Positions 760 through 13,901 of a stretch of 64,000 bases of DNA are shown piece by piece (position 1 is the stretch's first letter; every line of letters begins with the position of its first letter). The notes under the pieces were generated by a model. It was not told the origin of the DNA. It saw nothing but the letters and a program-made list of their open reading frames with translations, and searched no databases. This stretch comes from Candidatus Pacearchaeota archaeon (GTDB lineage: Archaea; Nanobdellota; Nanobdellia; Pacearchaeales; GW2011-AR1): the NCBI GenBank assembly GCA_017609535.1, contig JAFCDU010000001.1:4782-68781 (forward strand), written 5' to 3'. Made by a program: the position numbers and the translations under genes.

Positions 760-2385
760 TTAATCATTTTCTATTTTCCCCTCAACAAAATTTTCATCTG
801 AAAAATCCAAAATCTTAATCTCGCGTGTTTTCAAATTAAACAGCGGAACCTTGCACGGATCCGGCTCATTCCCAACCTTCTCTTCAAAAGGGGTCTTCGA
901 CTGCCAGCAACTCCCAGAGACAAGCAGAATATTATTATAAGTTCCAACCTCACATCTATGCCAATCACCCGTCGCTACAATATCAGGAACCTGATTAATA
1001 CATAATGCATCTTCTTTTTCAGTTGGAATATAAGTTACTGCACTATGAGTAGGACACAAATGCCTCCTCTTCAAAATTTCCTTAACAACTCTCGGCGGGT
1101 TATTGTGCCCATAATTAAGTCTAATATCTTCAATCTCTTCAGCAAAAGTATGCATTCCTGCACCATGATACATTAAAATTCTAAACCCCCCCTCAATTTC
1201 AATTAAACACGGATTCGTAACCAAAACAACATTTTCCATGCTATTAAGTTCTGGTGCATATTCCTCTCCAATCATCGGCTGTGGCTCAGCAACCCTTACT
1301 GCATCATGCTGCCCAGGACAGATGATAATTTTAATATCTTTTCTAATCTTATTAAGAATTTCAGTTAATTTTCTATATTGGTCCCTGATATCTTCAAACT
1401 CTAAACTAAAATTCTGATTTGGATAAACCCCAACGCCATCAACATTATCGCCCAATAAAAAAAGATACTTGACTTTTTTGGCAATTTCTTTCTGCTTATT
1501 ATCATCATCCTCAAGATTAATCCACTTAACAAATTTCATAATCTCCTTTTCCAAGAACATCTTGCTCCCAACATGTAAATCAGATGTAAATGCAACCCAA
1601 ACATCATCAACATGTTTCCTCTTCTCATGAAGCACGCAGTCAGGAAAAATCACATCATTTGCATACAACCATTCAGAATCTCCTGAAACAGAAAACGCAA
1701 CAATATCATCAAGCAACAAATCCTTAGCCTTATTATAAACCTCTTTCTTATTCTGATTAATCAAAATTCTCGCACTTCCGCTTAAATCCTCAACTTCTAA
1801 CATCAAATTTTTATTTTTTGTAATTCTCTTATCAAAAACAGCAGCAATAATCGTATAATTCCCTCTTCCAGAAATTCTCCTTATTGAAGTCAAATTGTCA
1901 AATTGTCTCATTTGTAAAATCTTGCTGATAGTGTTATATCTTATCCTAAAATATTTAACAAAATCATCTACACAAACTTTTTTTGGAATAATATTTGGAG
2001 CTGAAATTAATTTAATTTTTTTATCGTTCTCCTTCTTTGTCTCCGCAAGCTCTGTTCTTTCATACCCAAAATTAATAAAAAATTTTTCCATTATCATTTT
2101 GCTCTTTCCATCAACAAAATTTCTAATTTTTTCCATATTCTTTGAAAAAACCGTTTTTGTAATCACCCTCTCCCCAATCCCCAAACCCTCAATGCTCTCA
2201 ATCACCTTTCTCGCTTCATCCTCTTCTAATTCAGAAAAAATCTCCAGCATCTCCCTATCTAACAAAAATCCCTTCTCCATACAAATCTTTAAAAGTTCTT
2301 TCTTGTTTTCAGCTTCCATTAAAACTCTTAAAATATTTATCAGATTGTAAATTATATCTTCCACATCCCAACATCTTAAATTCAT
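760..2385 (-). CDS. DNA polymerase II (PolD) small subunit DP1 (calcineurin-like phosphoesterase exonuclease subunit)
   Basis: 541-aa ORF with a C-terminal metallophosphoesterase domain (GDNVD, GQHD, TGDWH motifs). It sits between orc1 and the DP2 gene on the same strand. Confidence 0.8.
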   Translation of the reverse strand: MNLRCWDVEDIIYNLINILRVLMEAENKKELLKICMEKGFLLDREMLEIFSELEEDEARKVIESIEGLGIGERVITKTVFSKNMEKIRNFVDGKSKMIMEKFFINFGYERTELAETKKENDKKIKLISAPNIIPKKVCVDDFVKYFRIRYNTISKILQMRQFDNLTSIRRISGRGNYTIIAAVFDKRITKNKNLMLEVEDLSGSARILINQNKKEVYNKAKDLLLDDIVAFSVSGDSEWLYANDVIFPDCVLHEKRKHVDDVWVAFTSDLHVGSKMFLEKEIMKFVKWINLEDDDNKQKEIAKKVKYLFLLGDNVDGVGVYPNQNFSLEFEDIRDQYRKLTEILNKIRKDIKIIICPGQHDAVRVAEPQPMIGEEYAPELNSMENVVLVTNPCLIEIEGGFRILMYHGAGMHTFAEEIEDIRLNYGHNNPPRVVKEILKRRHLCPTHSAVTYIPTEKEDALCINQVPDIVATGDWHRCEVGTYNNILLVSGSCWQSKTPFEEKVGNEPDPCKVPLFNLKTREIKILDFSDENFVEGKIEND

Positions 2386-2399
2386 TTAATCTATCCATC

Positions 2400-3626
2400 T
2401 CACAACCCCAAACTTTCAATCATAATACTCTCAACTTTCCCATGTAAATTACTTGGAATTGACAGCTTAATCTCCCTCGTCCGCCCATGCCTGCCCTTAG
2501 AAATCACTTTAGCATTAATCAATCCAAGCATATCAATTTCAGCAATAATATCTGATACCCTCCTCTGAGTCAAAACCTCTGTCTTGATTCTATCGCACAG
2601 CTCCTGGTAATAATTATAAACATCACCTGTAAAAATCTTATCAAAATTCTTAGATTGCTTAATCTGTTTAGTCAGCTGAAAAATAGAATATAAAACAAGC
2701 TGAAACTGCTTCGGCTCTGTCTCAACAATATCTAAAATCTTGTCCCTCTCTATTTTTTCATTAGCCAAATCAATAAATCTCAGCTCAACATTCTTACTGC
2801 CCTCCCTTTCAGACAACTCTCCTGCAATTCTCATTAAATCCAATGCTCTTCGCGCATCACCATGCTCTCTTGCTGCATATGCTGCGCATTTCGCAATAAC
2901 CCCCTCATCCACCACCCCCTCTTTAAACGCTTTCTTGCACCTCTCCTGCAAAATATCCTGCAGCTGCAACGCATTGTAAGGTGGAAAAACAATCTCCTCC
3001 TCGCCAAGAGAACTTCTTACTCTCGGATCAACATTATCTAAGAAAGTTACATCATTTGAAATGCCAATCAAACTAATTTGTGCCTTGCTCAATTCTGAAT
3101 TCAATCTTGTCAAATTATAAATAAACCCGTCTGAAATTTTATTAACAGCATTATCAATCTCATCAAAAATTAAAACAACTAACTGATTTTTATTGTCAAT
3201 TAATTCAATAAATTTAGAATAAACATGGTCCGTAGGAAGCCCTGTTGCAGGAATGCTCCCTCCAAGCTCCTTAATCAAAGCAGCCAAAATCCGATATTCA
3301 GTATCTGCAATTTTCTTCAGTTTGCAATTAAGATACTCAATCCTAACATCCACCCCCATCTGATTCGCCTTTTTCAATAATTCATCCCGAACATACTGAA
3401 CAGATAATGTCTTTCCAGTCCCTGTCTTCCCATACAAAAACAAATTACTTGGCCTCTCTCCTCTTAAAATTGAAGCTAAAATTGAAGCAACCTGTTCAAT
3501 CTGCTTATCCCTATGTGGAATGCTTTCAGGAGTATGATTCGCCTGCAAAATACTCTTATCTCTAAATAAAGAATTCTCAACAGCAGATTCAAAAATATTG
3601 TCTAACTCAACAGCCATCTTCCTCAA
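2400..3626 (-). CDS. orc1: Orc1/Cdc6 replication initiator (AAA+ ATPase with C-terminal winged helix)
   Basis: Walker A YGKTGTGKT, Walker B LVVLIFDEID, 408 aa. A GGGGGTTGAGGAAG Shine-Dalgarno-like element precedes the ATG. Confidence 0.9.
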   Translation of the reverse strand: MRKMAVELDNIFESAVENSLFRDKSILQANHTPESIPHRDKQIEQVASILASILRGERPSNLFLYGKTGTGKTLSVQYVRDELLKKANQMGVDVRIEYLNCKLKKIADTEYRILAALIKELGGSIPATGLPTDHVYSKFIELIDNKNQLVVLIFDEIDNAVNKISDGFIYNLTRLNSELSKAQISLIGISNDVTFLDNVDPRVRSSLGEEEIVFPPYNALQLQDILQERCKKAFKEGVVDEGVIAKCAAYAAREHGDARRALDLMRIAGELSEREGSKNVELRFIDLANEKIERDKILDIVETEPKQFQLVLYSIFQLTKQIKQSKNFDKIFTGDVYNYYQELCDRIKTEVLTQRRVSDIIAEIDMLGLINAKVISKGRHGRTREIKLSIPSNLHGKVESIMIESLGL

Positions 3627-4049
3627 CCCCCTTTTAATCCTTCACAAAATACCCCCAATCTATTTAAACTTTCCTATACTTGAAAATATAAATTATCACC
3701 CCCATTTCAAATGGAGCAAAAAACTCAAAAAATCTAAAAAATCAATCTTAAATCGTCGAAAACATCAAAAAACCCCTACCCCCTTATTTCCTCTCCAAAT
3801 GAAATTAAAACAAACAAATTAACAACTAAAAGAATTCCATATAAATATAACATAACTATCAAACAAAAAAACAGCAATAATAAATCCCTAACTATTCAAC
3901 AAAAAACAAGTAATAATAAATCCATAATTGTATATAATTAATCTAACAAAACCTTCAACAAAAACTATAATAATCCATAATTCACATAAAACCCTTTTCA
4001 TATAATTTCACATAAAAAAATATTATAAAAAATAATTCTACAAAACTAA

Positions 4050-4125
4050 CTAAAACCAACTAAAACCATAAATCTAAAACCATAATCAATCAATAATAAC
4101 CATTTAACAAAACTATCTAAAACCA
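4050..4125. repeat. Four dispersed copies of CTAAAACCA(A/T)
   Basis: Copies at 4050, 4060, 4074 and 4117, read directly. Confidence 0.7.
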
Positions 4126-4199
4126 TATCTGATTTAACATATCCAAAAAACATAGAGAAATAGGCAGTATATAATAAAACAAAAAACATAGAGAAAAAG

Positions 4200-4237
4200 T
4201 TATAATTAATGGTTATAATTAATGGTTATAATTCAAT
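4200..4237. repeat. Tandem repeat TTATAATTAATGG, about 2.9 copies
   Basis: ttataattaatgg ttataattaatgg ttataattcaat, read directly. Confidence 0.8.
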
Positions 4238-4359
4238 ATATATAATAAAATATATAAAATCTTATAAATAAAAAATAAAAAACCCTCCAAACCTCCCTTT
4301 AAAAACATTTCCAAAAGAAATCATAGGGTGGGAGAACATATCTAATCATTTACAGAAAC

Positions 4360-4369
4360 ATTTATAAAA
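4360..4369 (+). promoter_or_regulatory. TATA-box-like element for the PRC-barrel gene
   Basis: catTTATAAAAac about 22-28 nt upstream of ATG 4390. Confidence 0.3.
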
Positions 4370-4389
4370 ACAATCAATTTAATTCTAAA

Positions 4390-4644
4390 ATGGAGAAACG
4401 CCCTCTAAAATTACTTTTAGGAAAACAAATAGTAACAAAAGAAGGTAAACGATTAGGTTCAATTAAGGACATAACCTTTGAAACAAAAACAGGAGAACTA
4501 ATTCATCTTGTTTTAAAGGACCTCACAACCTATACCTCAAACCTATCTTTAGAAAGAACAGCCGATAGGGAAGCTTTAGTCCCTTTCTCAGCAGTGATTG
4601 CTGTAGGGGATTTTGTTGTGGTTTCTGAAGAAGATTTAATATAA
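4390..4644 (+). CDS. PRC-barrel domain protein
   Basis: 84 aa with a GKxVxxxxGxxLGxIxD-like core typical of small archaeal PRC-barrel proteins. A TATA-like TTTATAAAA lies about 25 nt upstream, suggesting a leaderless transcript. Confidence 0.55.
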   Translation: MEKRPLKLLLGKQIVTKEGKRLGSIKDITFETKTGELIHLVLKDLTTYTSNLSLERTADREALVPFSAVIAVGDFVVVSEEDLI

Positions 4645-4847
4645 ATTATTTTTAATAATCATAAAATAATTCTAAAATAAATCTTAATAATCACCTTACA
4701 AACCCCCTAAAGACTCGCAAAATTCTAAAACATCGATTAATCCCTGCCCTTTTTACTTGCAATCCAAGCCATTTTTCTAAATATTCTGTTTATAACCACA
4801 TAAAACATCAACATAAAACTTAAAAACAATCCTTATCAACTAATATC

Positions 4848-5108
4848 ATGGAAGCAAAATTACTTGGATTTAATTTAACAAAAATTAATGTAGAAAAAAA
4901 TCAAGATTATCAAGGAGAAGTCCAGTTAAAATCAAACATCGATATAACATCCATTGAAAAACATGAATCAGAAATTAACACATTAATAATAAATATAATT
5001 CTTCAAAGATGCACCCTTCGTGCTCTGCAATTAGAAGAGGAACTTGCACTTCCATTCCATATTCAATTGCCACAGGCAAAATTACAGGCCCCAAAAGAAT
5101 CGAAATAA
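4848..5108 (+). CDS. Hypothetical small protein
   Basis: 86-aa ORF with no recognisable domain and no clear RBS. Confidence 0.25.
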   Translation: MEAKLLGFNLTKINVEKNQDYQGEVQLKSNIDITSIEKHESEINTLIINIILQRCTLRALQLEEELALPFHIQLPQAKLQAPKESK

Positions 5109-5120
5109 TTTTAATCCTTC

Positions 5121-5132
5121 TTTTCTATAATT
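5121..5132 (+). promoter_or_regulatory. A/T box (TTTTCTATAATT) upstream of tRNA-Ser
   Basis: Lies about 20-25 nt upstream of the tRNA 5' end, as is typical of archaeal tRNA promoters. Confidence 0.3.
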
Positions 5133-5146
5133 AATTATTAACTTTT

Positions 5147-5226
5147 GCCCGCATCGCATAATGGTATTGCACTGGTCTCGAAAACCAGGTCCTATGGACA
5201 TCTCCGTTCGATTCGGAGTGCGGGCG
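5147..5226 (+). tRNA. tRNA-Ser (anticodon CGA), type II with long variable arm
   Basis: Acceptor GCCCGCA/TGCGGGC. Anticodon stem CTGGT/ACCAG with loop CTCGAAA. Variable arm GTCC-TAT-GGAC. T arm CTCCG-TTCGATT-CGGAG. Discriminator G, CCA not encoded. Confidence 0.85.
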
Positions 5227-5251
5227 TTCTTTACTTTATTCTGCAAATGCG

Positions 5252-5953: not shown

Positions 5954-8553
5954 TTTCTTAACTCTGCATAAACCCTCCTAATAAACTCAATCTTATCTTC
6001 AATCTTAATAACATCAGCATAACCCTGCAGAATCAAATTAATTGCAAATGGACTAACAACGCGCGTGTTTTTTTTCACAATCTTAATTTTTCCAGATTCA
6101 ATCCATTCTAAAACTTTTTCTGCATTCTTAATATCCATCAAATCCTCTAAAACCTCTCGTCTAGCTTCTTTCAAAATTGGAAAATTCTTTGTTTTCTTCT
6201 TCACAGCCGCAAGAATAAAATGCGAGGACATCTCTTGTTTTCCAACTGACTTAATTCTCCCCTTATAGTTTCTTAAAATCATAAGGCCTCGAGCAGCACA
6301 ATGCCTAAACCTTCGTTTTAAAATCTCTGTCTTCTCAATTGCCTCATCCAAAATCTTCCGAATATTTTCCTTTCTCAATTTCTTAAATGCCTTTTCAACC
6401 TGATTCAAATCCCCTCCTGAAATATAAAATCCATTGTCAGTGATTCCAATCCCAACATCCCTGCCTCTGGCAGAAGCAACTAAATAGCCAACAGCCCGCG
6501 ATAAAGCGTCATTGACCCTCCTCCCAAACAAAGTATGAAACAGCAAGTAATTCTTTTCAGCCCGATATTCTTCAATTAAAATCTTATTCTCATTAGGAAT
6601 AATAGAAAATTCCTTCTGGTCTTTAAAATAATTATAAATTGTCTCAGCAGTCTTATTGTCGCAATACAAATAATCCTTAATAAATCGCAGAACATCTTTT
6701 TTCCCATCCTTCATTCGTTCATCCATATATTTTCTAAATTTCCCAATACTAACCGCAGTATCAAAACTCAATGGAAGCATTTCAGAAAACCATGAAGGAA
6801 TTGTCGGACTTTTAATCGAGCGCTTAACATAAACATTCATTCCTTTTGTATACATAAACTGATACCTGCTCCCTCCCAAAACAAAAACATCCCCCTTCTT
6901 CAGTTTTTCTAAAAACAATTCATCAATTTTCCCAACAATTTTCCCATTTTCAACAACATTAACATAACTTTCATCAGGAATAGTTCCAATATTAGTCATA
7001 TAAATAACTCTTGCTAATTTTCCTTTCTTCCCAATCTCCCTCCTTTCTTCATCATACCAAATCTTAGAATAAACATGGCTTTTTTCCAATTCATACTCTC
7101 CAGCAAGATACGAAACAACATTAAAAAAATCCTCTCTTGTCAAATTTCTATAGCAATAACTCCTTCTAATCAAAGAAAACATCTCATCAACATTCCATCT
7201 TTTATTAATAGCCATTCCATAAATATGCTGAGCCAAAACATCCAAACAATTTTCAGGAATGTGGATTTCATCAATTCTTTTCTCAATACTATTCTTCAAA
7301 ATTAAAGCACATTCAACCAAATCATCAACATCATAAACAACAAAACATCCTTTTGCAATTGCATGAAGCTTATGCCCTGCTCTTCCAATCCTTTGCATGG
7401 CTCTTGCTACGCCCTTTGGACTTCCTAATAAAATTACTAAATCAATAAAACCAATATCAATCCCCAATTCAAGAGAAGTAGAGCATACAACAGCCTTTAA
7501 TTTTCCATTCCTAAGCCGCTCTTCAATTGAAAACCTATGTTCTTTTGAAAGCGAAGAATGATGCGCCCCAATCAATGGCTCTGTTTCCCCGCTTTCAGAA
7601 TCAATATTCTCATACTTCCCAGGAAACTTTTCTTTTAAATTATGAACAACCCTCTCAGTCGCAGCCCGCGTATTAGTAAAAATTAATGTTGTTTTATGCT
7701 GTTCAATAAGTTCATCAATCAATCGATACAAATTGGAATCCAACTCAATAGGGTTAGTCTCTAAAAAATCCTTTACAGGAGTCGCAATACTTAAATTCAG
7801 CCTTTTTTCCAATTCAACAGACGCAATTTTGCAATCCCTATCCCCGACAAGATAATGAGCAACCCTCTCCAACGGTGCAATAGTAGCACTCAATCCAATT
7901 CTAGTAAACTCAATTTTTGACAGATTCTGCAATCTTTCTAAGGTCAAACTCAAATGAACCCCCCGCTTATTCTCAGCAAGCGAATGAATCTCATCAACAA
8001 TAACAAACTCCAGCAAAGAAAATTTTTCAGAAAACTTAGGAGAATTAATCATAATAGCCAAACTTTCAGGCGTTGTAACTAAAATATGAGGAACTTTTTT
8101 TAACATCTTTACTCGCTCCTTAGTTTCAGTGTCCCCTGTCCGCAGATTAACTTTAATCTCCTGCATTTCAATACCTTTTTCTTTAGCAAGTTTATTAATC
8201 TCCTCTAATGGACGAACAAGATTAACATATATATCATTGCTCAATGCTTTCAAAGGAGAACAATAAACAGCATAGACCCTATTATCTAACTCTTTTTTCT
8301 TAGCAATTGAAACAAGATAATTTAAAATACTTAAAAAGGCAGTCAGAGTTTTAGTCCCTCCTGTAGGAGCAGAAATCAATATATTTTTCCTATGAAATAC
8401 AGGCAATACACCATATAATTGAGTCCTGCTGAAATTCCTAAATCGCGAAAAAAACCACTCTCTAACTAAAGGGTCCAAACTATCAATAATCAACCTGCTG
8501 TCATATTCTTTAATGAACTCAAATCTCCCCATCTTATTTAGAATAATGAACAA
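5950..8553 (-). CDS. lhr: Lhr-type superfamily 2 ATP-dependent DNA helicase (DEAH/DEIH box)
   Basis: Motif I APTGGTKT, motif II VIVDEIHSL, motif III LSAT, HHSSLSKEHR, motif VI QRIGRAGH, and a long Lhr-like C-terminal domain. The true start may be the ATG at 8532 (MGRFEF). Confidence 0.8.
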   Translation of the reverse strand: MFIILNKMGRFEFIKEYDSRLIIDSLDPLVREWFFSRFRNFSRTQLYGVLPVFHRKNILISAPTGGTKTLTAFLSILNYLVSIAKKKELDNRVYAVYCSPLKALSNDIYVNLVRPLEEINKLAKEKGIEMQEIKVNLRTGDTETKERVKMLKKVPHILVTTPESLAIMINSPKFSEKFSLLEFVIVDEIHSLAENKRGVHLSLTLERLQNLSKIEFTRIGLSATIAPLERVAHYLVGDRDCKIASVELEKRLNLSIATPVKDFLETNPIELDSNLYRLIDELIEQHKTTLIFTNTRAATERVVHNLKEKFPGKYENIDSESGETEPLIGAHHSSLSKEHRFSIEERLRNGKLKAVVCSTSLELGIDIGFIDLVILLGSPKGVARAMQRIGRAGHKLHAIAKGCFVVYDVDDLVECALILKNSIEKRIDEIHIPENCLDVLAQHIYGMAINKRWNVDEMFSLIRRSYCYRNLTREDFFNVVSYLAGEYELEKSHVYSKIWYDEERREIGKKGKLARVIYMTNIGTIPDESYVNVVENGKIVGKIDELFLEKLKKGDVFVLGGSRYQFMYTKGMNVYVKRSIKSPTIPSWFSEMLPLSFDTAVSIGKFRKYMDERMKDGKKDVLRFIKDYLYCDNKTAETIYNYFKDQKEFSIIPNENKILIEEYRAEKNYLLFHTLFGRRVNDALSRAVGYLVASARGRDVGIGITDNGFYISGGDLNQVEKAFKKLRKENIRKILDEAIEKTEILKRRFRHCAARGLMILRNYKGRIKSVGKQEMSSHFILAAVKKKTKNFPILKEARREVLEDLMDIKNAEKVLEWIESGKIKIVKKNTRVVSPFAINLILQGYADVIKIEDKIEFIRRVYAELRK

Positions 8554-8927: not shown

Positions 8928-9545
8928 ATGGACCCAATTAAAGAAGCATTTCAAAAAGTCAAAGCTGAAATCTTAGATTTAAAGAAAGAAATTCAAGAAA
9001 TAAAACAAGAACTTCAACAGACAGACAATCCAACAGACAATCCAACACATATTCCAACACTTATCACTCTTTCAGAGCCTCTGAAACAGCCAAATTTGGC
9101 ATTTTCCACAAGAAACAGGGGGGTTCCAACAGACAATCCAACCAACAAACCAACACACCAACAGACAGACAAAAGCAATGAAAATCTATCATATCAAGCC
9201 AATTTTGATGATTTTGAACAAGCCCGCAAAATCTTAGATTCCTTAGATAACATAAAAAAGGAAATTCGCCTTAAATTTAAGCGCCTAACACCTAAGGAAA
9301 TGCTCGTTTTTTCCACAATTTATCAATTAGAAGAGAGAAATATAGAAGAGATTACCCATAAGATTTTGGCAAATATCCTTAATTTAAGTGAATCCTCTAT
9401 TAGAGAATATATAAATAAACTTACAAAAAAAGGGATCCCCATACTAAAAATACGCCAAAATAACAGGAAAATCCTCTTAAAAATCTCACAAGACCTCAAA
9501 AAAATTGCCAGTTTATCAACGATAATCCAATTAAGAGAACTATAA
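8928..9545 (+). CDS. Protein with N-terminal coiled coil, PTDNPT low-complexity repeats and C-terminal HTH (MarR/TrmB-like)
   Basis: 205 aa. Repeats TDNPTDNPTHIPT ... PTDNPTNKPT. C-terminal LTPKEMLVFSTIYQLEE...SESSIREYINKLTKKGI. Confidence 0.5.
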   Translation: MDPIKEAFQKVKAEILDLKKEIQEIKQELQQTDNPTDNPTHIPTLITLSEPLKQPNLAFSTRNRGVPTDNPTNKPTHQQTDKSNENLSYQANFDDFEQARKILDSLDNIKKEIRLKFKRLTPKEMLVFSTIYQLEERNIEEITHKILANILNLSESSIREYINKLTKKGIPILKIRQNNRKILLKISQDLKKIASLSTIIQLREL

Positions 9546-9641
9546 TGTCTGATTAATCGGTATACCGATTAAAAATATCCATCTTCTCTCCACTAAATTT
9601 CAATATCATCTCCTAATAAAACCTTCCTATGAAATCTAATG

Positions 9642-10250
9642 TTATTTCTCACCTTTCTTTGATTTTTTACCTGATTTAACTCTCACTTTTACACTTTTTA
9701 ACAAGATTTCCTTCTTGTTTTCAGGAATATACAACCTCTTTTTACCATTTTTTTCCCTTATCTCTCCTATCAAACCCTCACTTTTCTGTTTTATAGCATT
9801 TACTTGCCCTCTTATTGTGCTTTTATCCTTCCCTAAAAGAGCTGCCAAGTCCTCATAGCTTAGTTTTAACTCACTATTCAACAAAGCCCATACAATTGCC
9901 CTCTCCATTACTGTAAAATTAGATAAAATGGCTGTTTGGACACCCGTTTGGACAGGTGTTTGGACACCTTCAACACCTGTTTGTTTATCAACAGCTGTTT
10001 GTTGCTGTTTGGACAAAAACCATGGATTTTGGACAGAGACAATATTTCTTAATTCTTTCATCTCTTCTTGAAGTTGATAAATTAAATCTTTGAGAGATGA
10101 AATCTCATCTTCATAATTCTTATTTTTTCCGTCAATATGAGTAATCCATTGTCCTACTTTAACAAAATCCTCTCTTACTGCATCAAAAGATTTATGCATA
10201 TCATTCTTTAATTTTTCAATCTCCCTCTTTTTTCTAAGAAAACCAAACAT
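9642..10250 (-). CDS. Protein with N-terminal coiled coil, VQT repeats and C-terminal HTH
   Basis: 202 aa. QTGVEGVQTPVQTGVQT repeats are encoded by four copies of TGTCCAAACA. C-terminal winged-helix-like FTVMERAIVWALLNSELKLSYEDLAALLG. Confidence 0.5.
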   Translation of the reverse strand: MFGFLRKKREIEKLKNDMHKSFDAVREDFVKVGQWITHIDGKNKNYEDEISSLKDLIYQLQEEMKELRNIVSVQNPWFLSKQQQTAVDKQTGVEGVQTPVQTGVQTAILSNFTVMERAIVWALLNSELKLSYEDLAALLGKDKSTIRGQVNAIKQKSEGLIGEIREKNGKKRLYIPENKKEILLKSVKVRVKSGKKSKKGEK

Positions 10251-10495: not shown

Positions 10496-10783
10496 ATGAG
10501 ATTTAATAAGCGGATTATATATTCCGGAGCAATCTCTTTAATTATTTTTTTCTTAGCAATGTCCATTAAAATAATCCCTTGCCAGACAGCTCCAAATGTT
10601 CCAAACCCCCAATATTCTTGGAAAATGTGCTCATTAAATCCCGACGCTGAGATAAAAACAGGAACTAAAAAACTATTCTTCGGTTTTAGTGAAAGCTTGT
10701 CAGAAACATATTTCATTGTCCTTTTAGTAACATTTATATTCTCAATGATACTATTACATTTTATAGGAAAAAGGAACATTTAA
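10496..10783 (+). CDS. Hypothetical small membrane protein (alternative: the overlapping minus-strand ORF 10486-10779)
   Basis: 95 aa with hydrophobic N- and C-terminal segments. A TATA-like aatttataaac lies about 25 nt upstream. It shares strand with the following genes. Overlapping ORFs exist on both strands, so the assignment is uncertain. Confidence 0.3.
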   Translation: MRFNKRIIYSGAISLIIFFLAMSIKIIPCQTAPNVPNPQYSWKMCSLNPDAEIKTGTKKLFFGFSESLSETYFIVLLVTFIFSMILLHFIGKRNI

Positions 10784-10819: not shown

Positions 10820-11014
10820 ATGAAAAAACAAGGAGCTGGTCCAGTGGGCATTGTTTTTTGGTTAGTTGGAATTATTGTTTCATTGGCAGTTGGCTTTGGC
10901 CTAATCAGTGGTAGTTTAGCTGTACCATACATAGGCCCAGTCAATCAAATAACTGGCTGGATTGTAGTGATTGGAACTGTTATCAATGTAATACTGGCCA
11001 TATTCAGTCAATAA
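10820..11014 (+). CDS. Small two-TM membrane protein (hypothetical)
   Basis: 64 aa. A strong AAGGAGGTGA RBS lies 6 nt upstream of the ATG. Glycine-rich TM helices. Confidence 0.55.
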   Translation: MKKQGAGPVGIVFWLVGIIVSLAVGFGLISGSLAVPYIGPVNQITGWIVVIGTVINVILAIFSQ

Positions 11015-11106: not shown

Positions 11107-11171
11107 AAATCCCCATAATAAAAAAATTAATCAAAAAATCCAAGAATTCTTCATAAAATACATAAAATTTA

Positions 11172-11227
11172 TATACTTAGGGCACCCTAAATAAACAGAT
11201 ACAACTAAATATAGATCCCTAAGTATA
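11172..11227 (+). promoter_or_regulatory. Inverted-repeat site upstream of the serine recombinase gene; candidate recombination or operator site
   Basis: TATACTTAGGG-CA-CCCTAAATA forms a palindrome with a 2-bp centre. A third half-site CCCTAAGTATA, an exact inverse of the first, lies 35 bp downstream and ends 5 nt before the ATG at 11232. Confidence 0.45.
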
Positions 11228-11231
11228 CAAA

Positions 11232-11990
11232 ATGACTTCATCAAAACCTCTCGCAGCAATTTATGTTAGGGTTTCAACACAAGAACAAGCCCAGCAAGGT
11301 TTTTCCCTCGCAGCACAACAAGAATCCTTGGAAAATTATGCAAAAGCCTTAGGTTATGAAATTTTTAAAATTTACAAGGATGAAGGAAAATCTGCAAAGG
11401 ACATAAAACACCGGCCAGCAATGGTCCAAATGCTTAAAGATGCAGAGAGCAAAAAATTTCAAGCAATATTTATTTACAAACTTGACAGATTTTCCAGAAG
11501 CTTAAAAGACCTTATCCTGACAATAGACAAACTAAAAGAATGGGGCATAGATTTTGTCTCTCTGCAGGATAAAATAGAAACTGCCTCTGCTTCAGGAAAA
11601 CTCATGTTTCACATAATCTCCGCATTCGCAGAATTTGAACGAAACATCATTGGTGACAGAACAAAATTCGGCATGGAGCGAAAAGCAAAAGAAGGAGGAT
11701 TTATAACAAAACCTCCAAAGGGCTACAGGCTAATAAACAAACAACTCGTGGTTGATGAAAAAGAAGCAGAAAGAGTCAAACAAATATTTGAACAATTTCT
11801 AAATACCAAGATATCCCTAACACAATTAGCAAAACAAAATAACATGACAACAGCAGGAGTTAAAAAGCTCCTCCAAAACACAACCTACATAGGAAAAGTT
11901 AAATTCGCAGGAAAAGAAAGCCAGGGAAATCATAAACCCATTATTTCTTTAGGACTATTCAACAAAGTTCAGAATAAATTAAATCTCTAA
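11232..11990 (+). CDS. Serine recombinase (resolvase/invertase catalytic domain plus recombinase domain)
   Basis: N-terminal catalytic motif AAIYVRVSTQEQ (nucleophile Ser), DGKSAKD, RxxxxLDRFSR. C-terminal recombinase-domain-like region ending NTTYIGKVKF...GNHKPIIS. Confidence 0.8.
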   Translation: MTSSKPLAAIYVRVSTQEQAQQGFSLAAQQESLENYAKALGYEIFKIYKDEGKSAKDIKHRPAMVQMLKDAESKKFQAIFIYKLDRFSRSLKDLILTIDKLKEWGIDFVSLQDKIETASASGKLMFHIISAFAEFERNIIGDRTKFGMERKAKEGGFITKPPKGYRLINKQLVVDEKEAERVKQIFEQFLNTKISLTQLAKQNNMTTAGVKKLLQNTTYIGKVKFAGKESQGNHKPIISLGLFNKVQNKLNL

Positions 11991-12521
11991 AACAGACAAT
12001 CCAACCCCCTTCTCTTTAGCCCAGCTAAGCAAAGCAAGCAACTCCTTCCCCCGCAATTCAATAAGAATTTCAGTATCCCCTTCATCACAGCGCTCAATTT
12101 CTTTATCACCCAAAGGAGGGGTCGCATAAAAATTATTAAATTTACAAGTATTATCGCAATATAAAATCCTATTTGTAACTCGCTCAACATCATCTTTTAA
12201 AATCTCAGGAATGTCATCAATTAGTTCAAGAGTTTCATTCAAACGTTCAGCAACCCCCCCTTCTTTAATTTTTTCTCTAATAAATTCTGGCAAATTTGTC
12301 AATTCTTCTTCATTATATTCCTTTAAAGTCAAATTTCCCTTAACATAATCCAAACAATAATCATTTGAATCGCATTTCACAAATAAATCCTCTTTCTCAT
12401 CCGTGACACAAACCCGCAAAACCTTAAAAACATAAAAATAATAAAAATAAACTCCAATAAACAAGATTAATAAAACTAAAATACCTACAATAATCAAAAA
12501 TATTTTCAAACCCCTGCCCAT
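11979..12521 (-). CDS. N-terminally anchored cysteine-containing protein (hypothetical)
   Basis: 180 aa with one N-terminal TM helix, then an acidic domain with 7 Cys. Confidence 0.4.
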   Translation of the reverse strand: MGRGLKIFLIIVGILVLLILFIGVYFYYFYVFKVLRVCVTDEKEDLFVKCDSNDYCLDYVKGNLTLKEYNEEELTNLPEFIREKIKEGGVAERLNETLELIDDIPEILKDDVERVTNRILYCDNTCKFNNFYATPPLGDKEIERCDEGDTEILIELRGKELLALLSWAKEKGVGLSVLEI

Positions 12522-12553
12522 TTAATTATTTAATAAGGCCTATTTATAAATGT

Positions 12554-12575
12554 TGTCCAAACACCTGTCCAAACA
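12554..12575 (+). repeat. Doublet of TGTCCAAACA motifs, intergenic copy 2
   Basis: tgtccaaacacctgtccaaacagcaa. Confidence 0.7.
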
Positions 12576-12595
12576 GCAAAATTTAAATCATCTCG

Positions 12596-13129
12596 TTGTT
12601 TAAACAACCTATGGTCTGTGAAAAATGTGGTTATGCAGAAGAAAAAGAAGCTGAAAAATTCTCTAAAAAACTATGTAAAATCTGTTTTCACTTTGCACCA
12701 GATGATAAACAACTGTTCAAACAATATATAAAAGAAAAAATTGATTGGAGAATTTTAGATACTTTTAGAAAATATCCAAAAGAAAATCCTCTTAAATTAG
12801 GGATGCAAAAAAAAGCAAAACATGGACAGCCAATGACCCGCCCTCCACTCGGCTATTCTCTCAAAGATGGAACGCTCAAACCAAATCAGGATGCATCAAA
12901 AGTCCATTCTCTTTTTAGGGTTTTTCTTGAAAAAAACTATTCCTTAAATTCTCTGGCAAAAAATTACGGGTTATCAGTAAATGGTATAAAAAAAATTCTC
13001 ACAAATCGCACTTATCTTGGAGAAATCAAATTCGCAGGCTCCCTGCATAAAGGGAATCATCATCCCTTAATCTCACCAGAAATCTTTTACGCAGTCCAAA
13101 GAAAATTGCGAACAATCTGTTCAAAATAA
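12596..13129 (+). CDS. Zinc-ribbon plus recombinase-domain protein lacking the catalytic domain (paralog of the C-terminal half of the 11232 recombinase)
   Basis: N-terminal CEKCG...CKIC. C-terminal TRPPLGYSL...TNRTYLGEIKFAGSLHKGNHHPLIS aligns with KPPKGYRL...NTTYIGKVKFAGKESQGNHKPIIS of the neighbouring recombinase. Confidence 0.55.
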   Translation: MFKQPMVCEKCGYAEEKEAEKFSKKLCKICFHFAPDDKQLFKQYIKEKIDWRILDTFRKYPKENPLKLGMQKKAKHGQPMTRPPLGYSLKDGTLKPNQDASKVHSLFRVFLEKNYSLNSLAKNYGLSVNGIKKILTNRTYLGEIKFAGSLHKGNHHPLISPEIFYAVQRKLRTICSK

Positions 13130-13160: not shown

Positions 13161-13901
13161 TTACTTTTTTGCTCTACTCAAACTATTCTGAATTTTTGAA
13201 AGATTAACTGGCCCAACTTTGTCAGGATCTGCCCCAACATATGTTGCAATATCCTTTAAAAAATCAATATATTTCATAGTTACATCAAATTTTTGAACTT
13301 CTGGAAGGTAATCCATTCGTCCTTGTGTATTTTTTCCAGCAGGTTTAAGTCTCACGTAATTTAAAAGAACATTATCTATGGTTGGCATATACTCAAAATT
13401 AATAAGATGAACATGCCCCTTATTTGCTAATCTATTAAGTGTATTGTTTCTATGGTGCCCTTTTTCTGCAAATCCAATAATCTTATAACTAAGGTGCTTG
13501 GCTAATTGCCTCCTATAATCTTCAAAAGTCCCCCCAGTTCTTTCTGATTTTTTCAAAGCCCTTTGTTCAAGAGATTTTCTAAATTGCCTATAACCCTTTA
13601 CAGCAGAAGCACCAGAAAGAACCTCATCTAAACAAATTATTTTCAGCTCTTCATCAGTTTCATACTCTTCAAAAAAATTATCATACCATCTGGACATTAA
13701 CTCATCTCTTTTTCTAAACCTGCTTGAATTTGGCGGGTATTCTACAATTTCTAATGGAAACTTTCTATCAACTATTTTTAAAATATCAATAAAAGGCACA
13801 GCCCCAACTACTGGAGCAAATACAACATCAGGTTTTTCCATATGTATAATGTCTGAAGCCTTCTTAAAACCCTTAACAAGATTCTCTATACTCCCTTTCA
13901 T
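13161..13901 (-). CDS. Phosphoribosyltransferase (PRTase)-fold protein of unknown function
   Basis: 246 aa. PRPP-binding-like motif KIICLDEVLSGASA, preceded by VVFAPVVGAVPF. Confidence 0.4.
   Translation of the reverse strand: MKGSIENLVKGFKKASDIIHMEKPDVVFAPVVGAVPFIDILKIVDRKFPLEIVEYPPNSSRFRKRDELMSRWYDNFFEEYETDEELKIICLDEVLSGASAVKGYRQFRKSLEQRALKKSERTGGTFEDYRRQLAKHLSYKIIGFAEKGHHRNNTLNRLANKGHVHLINFEYMPTIDNVLLNYVRLKPAGKNTQGRMDYLPEVQKFDVTMKYIDFLKDIATYVGADPDKVGPVNLSKIQNSLSRAKK

Follow-up and report, generated by a model that had tools for sequence, protein, structure and literature searches.

A stretch of 64,000 nucleotides from Candidatus Pacearchaeota archaeon (NCBI GenBank assembly GCA_017609535.1, contig JAFCDU010000001.1, positions 4,782 to 68,781), here called the window, was analysed around a pair of related recombinase genes; coordinates of the recombinase locus refer to this 64-kb window. 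The first gene (open reading frame 1, ORF1), designated SER, encodes a compact serine recombinase and is directly preceded by a conserved DNA element. The second (ORF2), designated RDZ, encodes a zinc ribbon and a recombinase domain (RD), without a catalytic domain. The central features are the following.

11168–11228, plus strand: SER-upstream element with a TATA box, a palindrome and a third half-site; candidate crossover site or operator
11232–11990, plus strand: SER (ORF1), 252 residues, Pfam Resolvase and Recombinase domains
12541–12575, plus strand: RDZ promoter region, with TATA box TATTTATAAA at 12541–12550 followed by a direct repeat
12611–13129, plus strand: RDZ (ORF2), 172 residues, Cys4 zinc ribbon and RD

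These features were compared with 72 loci carrying a full-length RDZ, obtained by a profile scan of the GTDB species representatives, and with 83 SER loci, collected through context look-ups and a SER-profile scan of metagenomes. For the comparison of gene order, 80 metagenomic loci were used, with the window and loci L084–L086 alongside. From the comparison, the domain content and intactness of the two genes, the conservation of their families and of the gene order, the presence of a conserved DNA element and the paralogy of the two proteins are established, and we are highly confident that SER and RDZ are intact genes fixed in the chromosome.

SER and its RD-only paralogue RDZ

Residues 8–156 of SER match the Pfam Resolvase domain (PF00239, E 4.9e-44) and residues 176–250 the Pfam Recombinase domain (PF07508, E 3.8e-9), with positions 1–99 of the 102 in the latter profile covered. 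This agrees with the sequence-only reading of this DNA, which had described ORF1 as a resolvase catalytic domain, with its serine in YVRVSTQEQ, followed by a recombinase-like C-terminus. The protein comprises the catalytic domain (8–156), helix alphaE (approximately 122–153) and the RD (approximately 160–251). The nucleophile within the YVRVSTQEQ motif is Ser15, and residues R13, S15, D85, R86 and R89 are invariant throughout the SER family. The solved structure nearest to SER by sequence is the catalytic domain of TP901-1 integrase (E 8.6e-30); the matches to gamma-delta and Tn3 resolvases are weak (E 1e-7 to 1e-9). The best Foldseek matches of the SER model are the SPbeta, Bxb1, phiC31 and A118 integrases. 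In the AlphaFold2 (AF2) model the RD has a predicted local distance difference test score (pLDDT) above 90 and fits structure 4kis at a root-mean-square deviation (rmsd) of 2.5–3.1 Å, the catalytic part being of low confidence.

A homologue search with ORF1 returned 1992 proteins at E <= 1e-10, the best 120 of which share 76–84% identity with SER and have lengths of 249–272 residues. The NCBIfam scores of SER are far under the equivalog cutoffs (e.g. 153 bits versus 900 for CcrB). Compared with the large serine recombinases (LSRs), SER has the catalytic domain as well as alphaE and RD, and lacks both the C-terminal zinc ribbon or coiled coil and the length of 450–700 residues. The zinc-ribbon domain Zn_ribbon_recom (PF13408) gives no match in SER at E <= 0.1, and the protein stops at the RD. 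Its C-terminal domain is not the HTH_7 domain (PF02796) of small resolvases; that place is taken by PF07508, with the RD fold of LSRs. Judged by its sequence, SER belongs to the LSR lineage as a compact, autonomous enzyme that ends after the RD. Other families of about 250 residues with Resolvase and Recombinase domains exist as well.

ORF2 had earlier been placed at 12596–13129. The ORF is real, and its start is probably the ATG at 12611 and not the TTG at 12596; all homologues open with M-x-C-x-K-C. From the N-terminus RDZ consists of a Cys4 ribbon of about 28 residues (C3, C6, C22 and C25), a linker (approximately 45–72) that keeps the C-terminal part of alphaE, and the RD (approximately 75–171). 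ORF2 matches PF07508 (E 5e-7), so that domain assignment gives Resolvase and PF07508 in ORF1, PF07508 in ORF2 and Zn_ribbon_recom in neither. Residues 67–169 match the RD of A118 integrase by sequence in the PDB (E 1.6e-5), and the AF2 model (pLDDT 85.7) aligns with 4kis in Foldseek (E 2.5e-7, rmsd 1.9–2.7 Å over approximately 118 residues). The CxxC...CxxC ribbon noted in the earlier reading is real, with 45 invariant columns, including all four cysteines, in an alignment of 27 RDZ homologues. It is not the zinc-ribbon module of LSRs, as it has no PF13408 match, is not aligned by Foldseek to the LSR zinc-ribbon domain, and is not accompanied by a coiled coil, which was found in neither SER nor RDZ.

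The search with ORF2 returned 455 proteins. The best 120 of these have 60–74% identity and 168–189 residues, and come from Pacearchaeota, Woesearchaeota and Nanoarchaeota. The RD-only family as a whole spans approximately 135–190 residues, and its N-termini differ by type, being a Cys4 ribbon, a single CxxC or a coiled coil. Such a zinc ribbon or coiled coil in place of the dimerising catalytic domain suggests that these are self-standing, probably dimeric DNA-binding proteins.

That ORF2 repeats the C-terminal region of ORF1 is borne out far beyond chance by pairwise alignment. In BLASTP, residues 123–250 of ORF1 align with residues 48–171 of ORF2 at 39% identity over 128 residues (E 2e-28), and the similarity reaches into the C-terminal part of helix alphaE. 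The RDs of SER proteins and of RD-only proteins are 39–45% identical. An unbootstrapped neighbour-joining tree of a short alignment places the SER RDs and all DPANN RD-only RDs (Cys4, single-CxxC and coiled-coil types) in one clade, apart from other LSR RDs, and ORF1 and ORF2 have a common best PHROG match, integrase family phrog_95. On this sequence evidence ORF2 is a catalytically dead paralogue of the C-terminal domain of SER, and the anatomy as first described holds true.

The pair of genes recurs elsewhere: an RD-only gene lies 3' of SER, on the same strand, in 23 of the 30 SER loci with at least 3 kb of sequence 3' of SER, and functional coupling of SER and RDZ appears plausible. In two loci (L072 and L166) the last 41 residues of SER are of the RDZ type (NRTYLGEIKFAG...SPEIFYAVERKL). 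There the gene for ribosomal protein S9 directly follows the chimeric SER, a separate RD-only gene is missing, and the upstream element is unchanged, which looks like the outcome of a deletion or fusion between two tandem RDs. These two are the only clear chimeras counted. L077, also considered as a SER/RD-only chimera, was rejected, as only its helix motif is RD-only-like and its RD identity is 46% versus 45% for the SER of the window.

Neither ORF shows truncation, a frameshift or a loss of conserved residues, and the same SER and RDZ proteins are called on independent contigs. A pseudogene or degraded gene was ruled out, since lengths and conserved residues agree with those of hundreds of homologues. 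A reading of ORF2 as a frameshifted fragment of a longer gene likewise fails, as the lengths match those of full-length homologues.

RDZ has a promoter region of its own. Just past its TATA box, a direct repeat TGTCCAAACA is found at 12554–12563 and 12566–12575, the copies being parted by CC. Apart from the window, only the closely related L086 showed a TGTCCAAACA-like repeat, which is a possible operator. Most RD-only genes carry a TTTATAAA-type TATA box approximately 25–60 nt 5' of their start, and a search near these genes found neither a conserved operator nor SER-type half-sites.

Other proteins with an RD and without a catalytic domain were also seen (P0258, P0277 and P0299). They include tandem double RDs of 246 residues, and RDs fused to HTH_23 and to TrmB/MarR-type winged helix-turn-helix (wHTH) domains, with lengths of 356–422 residues. 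It seems that transcription-factor-like proteins have arisen from the RD by exaptation on several occasions.

The DNA element upstream of SER

In the window the element is composed of the following parts.

11168–11175: TATA box TTTATATA
11175–11182: left arm of the palindrome, ACTTAGGG
11183–11184: centre of the palindrome, CA
11185–11192: right arm of the palindrome, CCCTAAAT
11217–11228: third half-site CCCTAAGTATAC, in direct orientation

The palindrome ACTTAGGG-CA-CCCTAAGT and the third half-site, 31 bp off, are near-invariant and lie 5' of SER in 78 loci. The consensus of the element is ATTTATATA-CTTAGGG-(CA or TG)-CCCTAA(A/G)T...AC, followed approximately 22 nt on by CCCTAAGTTYAC, and in most element-bearing loci a AAAGAGGAAAA Shine-Dalgarno sequence stands ahead of the ATG. 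The element of the window is more compact, its third half-site ending 3 nt before the ATG, with no Shine-Dalgarno sequence of the AAAGAGG type. Counted over 72 element-bearing loci, half-sites are found relative to the centre at -8 in all 72, at +2 in 71 and at +33 in 61; an extra half-site at -39 is present in eight loci. The central dinucleotide (68 loci) is CA in 54 and TG in 11, and flips between loci with near-identical flanks (L120 versus L119 and L123). This looks like a flip of the spacer of a perfect palindrome, and shows that the centre is free to point either way with respect to the gene.

The palindrome occurs once in the window, where 0.02 matches are expected by chance, and there is one per locus. 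No partner recombination site could be identified in the window, in which the half-site count is at chance level. The element is absent from loci of the XerA type, in which the gene slot of SER is taken by a tyrosine recombinase (see below), and from a comparison set of 2.9 million viral contigs; the XerA-type loci show no enrichment of CCCTAAG. A function of the element as RNA was ruled out, as it has no Rfam match and its fold is not significant (z -0.98).

In the structure of A118 integrase bound to DNA, the RD reaches to about position 13 and the zinc-ribbon domain spans positions 16–24 (PMC3783163). Since the A118 contacts reach to about position 13, a dimer of alphaE and RD would cover approximately 26–28 bp, which is the size of the palindrome. 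As in systems of the res/dif type, a conserved site with a palindromic core lies next to the recombinase gene, is present in one copy and has a dinucleotide at its centre.

A dif-like 9-6-9 motif, ACTTCGTACAA-CCTATA-TTGnnnnAACT, was seen 46–70 nt 5' of the palindrome in approximately 19 of 66 SER loci (e.g. L120, L149 and L136), and three of these have it as a near-perfect inverted repeat. The left arm, AGTTCGCACAAT, is shared by the 5' region of xerA in loci of the XerA type, where it lies past the TATA box and before the start of the gene. No dif-like motif above chance was found in the window. The motif may represent a dif, either linked or a relic, or else an element of a promoter.

Chromosomal setting and alternation with XerA

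The gene order of SER loci is HTH205 (plus), cc210 (minus), in part m96 and m64, SER (plus), 0–2.7 kb of variable genes, an RD-only gene (plus), and S9 and L13 (both minus). It is seen in the window, in L084–L086 and in most of the 80 metagenomic loci, among Pacearchaeota, Woesearchaeota and Nanoarchaeota. The convergent operon past the RD-only gene is S9-L13-RpoD. S9 is present in 21 of the 30 SER loci with sufficient downstream sequence; in 61 of the 72 RDZ loci it is convergent at a median distance of 468 bp downstream, followed by L13, L18e and RpoD.

In 50 of the 72 RDZ loci the slot of SER, upstream of RDZ and on the same strand, is occupied by a tyrosine recombinase of approximately 277 residues, which scores 233–273 bits and passes the NCBIfam equivalog cutoff for archaeal XerA of 220 bits. 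A Resolvase catalytic domain was found only once at these loci (L015), with loci found through SER itself set aside. Conversely, XerA is present at one of the 83 SER loci (L096, in tandem after SER), and none was found in the 64-kb window. The flanks of the window match those of XerA-type loci exactly, with SER standing in the position of XerA, followed by the membrane-protein gene MEM, RDZ and S9. The spacing between SER and the RD-only gene is variable, and so is the distance from XerA to the RD-only gene. In a neighbour-joining tree of S9 and L13, also unbootstrapped and from a short alignment, 21 SER loci form one clade, and the pairs window and L086, and L072 and L166, nest among XerA-type loci. 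This nesting suggests either repeated switching or differential loss from an ancestor with both SER and XerA, like L096. In L096 (7964–16707) SER, a cargo ORF of 189 residues and XerA stand in tandem, and the L21e...S13-S4-S11-RpoD-L18e-L13-S9 operon is inverted relative to all other loci.

Conservation of SER exceeds that of the ribosomal proteins encoded at its loci. The median identity between pairs is 75.6% for SER versus 58.6% for S9 and L13, and SER has the higher value in 99% of the 231 pairs compared. By part, the median is 84.8% for the catalytic domain and 61.5% for the RD. SER identity remains flat at approximately 76% as S9 and L13 identity runs from 40% to 70%, and climbs only between very close genomes; near-identical SER pairs between distant genomes were not found. 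We take this pattern to reflect very strong constraint, the free positions being saturated.

The further features of this part of the window are listed below.

760–2385, minus strand: PolD small subunit
2400–3626, minus strand: Cdc6/Orc1, approximately 7.6 kb upstream of SER
3627–5145: intergenic region of 1.5 kb, approximately 25% GC, likely oriC
5146–5227: tRNA-Ser
9642–10250, minus strand: cc210, flank common to XerA-type loci
10496–10783: m96, flank common to XerA-type loci
10820–11014: m64, flank common to XerA-type loci
11979–12521, minus strand: MEM, single-pass membrane protein of 180 residues; conserved neighbour, not a recombinase component
13161–13901, minus strand: unnamed ORF of 246 residues between RDZ and S9

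The recombinase locus is origin-proximal, and the proximity of cdc6 to SER is shared by L072, L084 and L085. The convergent membrane-protein gene that had been noted between ORF1 and ORF2 is real, and overlaps the 3' end of ORF1 by 12 bp. MEM has no match in Pfam, NCBIfam, PHROG or PADLOC; homologues are found at the same position in 29 of the 72 loci, beside XerA or SER, in the variable zone that separates the recombinase from the RD-only gene. The ORF of 246 residues also lacks matches in these four databases, and a homologue at its position was found only in L086. A divergent pair HTH205/cc210 (8928–10250 in the window) is conserved at more than 50 loci, SER-type and XerA-type alike. HTH205 contains a coiled coil, a Pro/Thr/Asn-rich repeat and a wHTH domain, and cc210 a coiled coil, a QTAVQT repeat and a wHTH domain.

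There is no compositional island around SER and RDZ (no GC shift), and no flanking repeats, terminal repeats or target duplications were found around the locus. The viral contigs contain no member of the SER or RDZ family, and PADLOC gave no defence-system matches. SER thus shows none of the features of a mobile-element integrase (variable location, boundaries, mobile genes), and a mobile element was rejected on these grounds together with the constant synteny.

In 24 of 69 SER loci (L087–L159) one unrelated ORF is found at the same nucleotide position, between the Shine-Dalgarno/ATG of the element and the SER start. The inserted ORFs belong to at least 12 families, including HAD, NUDIX, 2H-phosphoesterase, nucleotidyltransferase, dCMP deaminase, P-loop kinase, PD-(D/E)XK-like and membrane proteins; examples are found in L089 (approximately 7372–8004), L136 and L122. 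The 3' end of every inserted ORF overlaps the start codon of SER, as ATGA or TAAAATG. A HAD-like cargo gene also directly precedes XerA in L011.

Proposed role of the locus and alternative explanations

We propose, giving it about an even chance, that the locus is a fixed, autoregulated site-specific recombination module of the res/dif type, accompanied by an exapted DNA-binding paralogue. From the features described above we infer, with unequal strength, that SER binds the element, regulates itself and resolves dimers, and that it cooperates with RDZ. The two intact chromosomal genes would have been inherited vertically in this DPANN archaeon. Helix alphaE and the RD of SER would bind as a dimer to the palindrome of approximately 28 bp and, as this overlaps the SER TATA box and transcription start, SER would repress its own transcription; such binding and autoregulation we consider probable. 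SER would also use the single-copy palindrome as a res/dif-like crossover site and cut at the central CA. Recombination of two copies would then occur only in a dimeric replicon, which is the role of XerA/dif in sister lineages. The identification of the element as a res/dif-like resolution site is put forward tentatively. The invariance of the catalytic residues, and the position of the catalytic domain as the most conserved part of the protein, argue for retained SER chemistry.

RDZ would have arisen by duplication of the C-terminal half of SER, with loss of the catalytic domain and gain of an N-terminal zinc ribbon, other RD-only lineages having gained a coiled coil instead. It may now be a sequence-specific DNA binder that acts as a regulator or architectural factor at SER-type half-sites, e.g. 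the third half-site, or at separate targets. An action of RDZ together with SER is conceivable, though we regard it with some doubt. The most far-reaching version, in which some DPANN archaea resolve chromosome dimers by SER at a res-like promoter palindrome with RDZ as partner, and not by XerA/dif, we hold to be doubtful.

Several observations weigh against this proposal. First, with regard to resolution, the palindrome could be an operator only. The element and SER are separated by a few kb from cdc6 and the probable oriC, whereas a dif site is typically found at the terminus. L096 carries both enzymes, which therefore need not be functionally redundant, and XerA could still be acting at those SER loci that bear the 9-6-9 motif. 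Secondly, with regard to inheritance, the flat SER identity is also compatible with an ancient horizontal spread, and both the RD tree and the S9 and L13 tree are unbootstrapped neighbour-joining trees of short alignments. Finally, with regard to RDZ, seven of the 30 SER loci have no RD-only gene, at least 50 species keep an RD-only gene at loci with XerA and without SER, the helix motif is LSVNG in RD-only proteins versus MTTAG in SER, and SER-type half-sites are lacking near RD-only genes.

The earlier suggestion of a recombinase with a DNA-binding accessory subunit stands in part. In its strict form SER and RDZ would be an obligatory two-component recombinase, in which RDZ occupies accessory half-sites, or pairs through its alphaE remnant, and is needed for recombination or directionality. 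The common origin of the two RDs, the RD-only gene downstream in 23 of 30 SER loci, the retention of the C-terminal part of alphaE in RDZ and the conservation of the same DNA element in front of the chimeric SERs speak for an accessory. So does the third half-site, which at 31 bp off and mostly without a symmetric partner suits a binder without a catalytic-domain dimer. Less well supported is the obligatory two-subunit enzyme. RD-only proteins with 60–74% identity are found in at least 50 species with XerA and without SER at the locus, their genes have their own promoter at 0–2.7 kb from SER, seven of 30 SER loci have no RD-only gene nearby (in L072 and L166 none before S9), and XerA-type loci show no CCCTAAG enrichment. 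The self-standing character of RD-only genes in promoter, spacing, motif and SER-less loci is evidence against an obligatory partnership. A role of RDZ as a classical recombination directionality factor (RDF) is unlikely as well, because SER has no coiled coil or zinc ribbon for an RDF to act on. Taken as a whole, the two-component enzyme seems unlikely.

Somewhat lower we place the explanation that the palindrome is solely an operator, SER a domesticated regulator, and RDZ an independent transcription factor or nucleoid protein that stands beside the S9 operon by conserved gene order. It would account for the overlap of the palindrome with the TATA box and transcription start, for the absence of a partner site within 64 kb, for the promoter and persistence of RD-only genes without SER, and for RD-wHTH fusions among other catalytic-less proteins. 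The whole region being syntenic, adjacency is moreover weak evidence of a functional link. It does not fit well with the invariance of all catalytic residues in what is, at 84.8% identity, the most conserved part of SER, and one site per replicon is exactly what resolution of the res/dif type needs. We therefore rate it as rather improbable.

In a further explanation SER would serve a mobile or gene-capturing element as its integrase or resolvase, the locus would be an integron-like hotspot into which SER inserts cargo genes, and RDZ would be either unrelated or an excision factor. Its attraction lies in the unrelated ORFs of at least 12 families at an identical nucleotide position in 24 of 69 loci, in the second variable zone between the recombinase and the RD-only gene, and in a SER identity that is uncoupled from host divergence. 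Yet each locus has a single copy of the element, and the junction of cargo and SER shows no second, hybrid att-like site. The cargo ORFs share no flanking motif beyond AAAATG, which is translation start context, and the same kind of cargo also precedes XerA. Syntenic housekeeping flanks without terminal repeats or target duplications, the lack of viral or mobile copies and the absence of near-identical SERs in distant hosts likewise make gene capture quite improbable.

Finally, a decayed or split LSR, with ORF1 as its N-terminal remnant and ORF2 as a frameshifted or truncated C-terminal remnant carrying the zinc ribbon, agrees with PF07508 and phrog_95 in both ORFs and with a SER catalytic domain nearest to LSRs (TP901-1, SPbeta, Bxb1), but can be dismissed, since hundreds of homologues have the same length under strong purifying selection, without truncation or frameshift and with invariant catalytic residues and Cys4, the RD is doubled rather than divided between the genes, the ribbon of approximately 28 residues is N-terminal to the RD and has neither PF13408 nor a coiled coil, and the arrangement with an intervening gene recurs across species.

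The proposed recombination module can be compared with several known systems. With LSRs (A118, TP901-1, phiC31, Bxb1, SPbeta SprA, CcrB and XisF) SER shares the type of catalytic domain, alphaE and the RD, that of A118 matching at an rmsd of approximately 2.5 Å, and its site is likewise palindromic with a non-palindromic central dinucleotide and G/C-rich inner arms. LSRs have 450–700 residues, whereas SER has 252 and lacks the zinc ribbon and coiled coil, so that no discrimination of attP and attB and no RDF-controlled directionality would be expected; LSRs also reside on phages and mobile elements, in contrast to SER, which is fixed in the chromosome. RDFs are small, unrelated proteins whose binding targets on LSRs are the coiled coil or the zinc-ribbon domain. 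SER has neither of these, and RD-only proteins also occur without SER.

Small serine resolvases (Tn3/gamma-delta TnpR, Sin, beta and RP4 ParA) have their res site in their own promoter. SER is likewise directly preceded by a presumed site that overlaps its promoter, with a palindromic crossover-type core and a half-site in direct orientation, as in site II of Sin, in one copy per replicon, and the expected outcome, autoregulation and dimer resolution, would be alike. They differ in their DNA-binding domain (HTH_7 versus the LSR-type RD of SER) and in their host (transposon or plasmid versus an archaeal chromosome), and the accessory layout of the SER site is far simpler than that of res, with one extra half-site in most loci. 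Sites II and III of res use the same resolvase protein and not a dedicated paralogue, whereas here a separate paralogue, RDZ, is present. RDZ resembles catalytically inactive recombinase-derived binders in being non-catalytic, having the DNA-binding fold of the recombinase and being encoded beside it, and could fill accessory or regulatory sites.

XerA occupies the same gene slot in sister lineages and is, as SER, single-copy and conserved at a housekeeping level. The tyrosine recombinase XerA and the serine recombinase SER are unrelated in fold and chemistry, and dif has an 11-6-11 structure versus a 2-bp-centred palindrome at SER. From position and conservation only, we infer functional equivalence of SER and XerA. 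Linked xerA/dif modules are known from some archaea (PMC5357621).

According to a review of 2021, archaeal serine recombinases were known only from transposons and were uninvestigated (PMC8371274), and our literature search returned nothing relevant on DPANN serine recombinases, RD-only proteins or chromosome resolution by serine recombinases. New here is a serine recombinase that is conserved beyond the ribosomal proteins of the same loci, beside a ribosomal-protein operon and near cdc6/oriC, with a near-invariant putative cognate site and in alternation with XerA in one gene slot. An LSR-lineage enzyme of 250 residues with a candidate site of approximately 28 bp is also an attractive minimal scaffold for recombinase engineering, and the RD-only family provides an example of a recombinase DNA-binding domain exapted into stand-alone DNA-binding proteins. 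If SER does resolve chromosome dimers, Xer/dif would have been replaced by a non-orthologous system, and the serine family would gain a new housekeeping role. Such a system would be the first in which a serine recombinase performs resolution as a housekeeping task on a cellular chromosome, with one recombinase superfamily swapped in place for an unrelated one.

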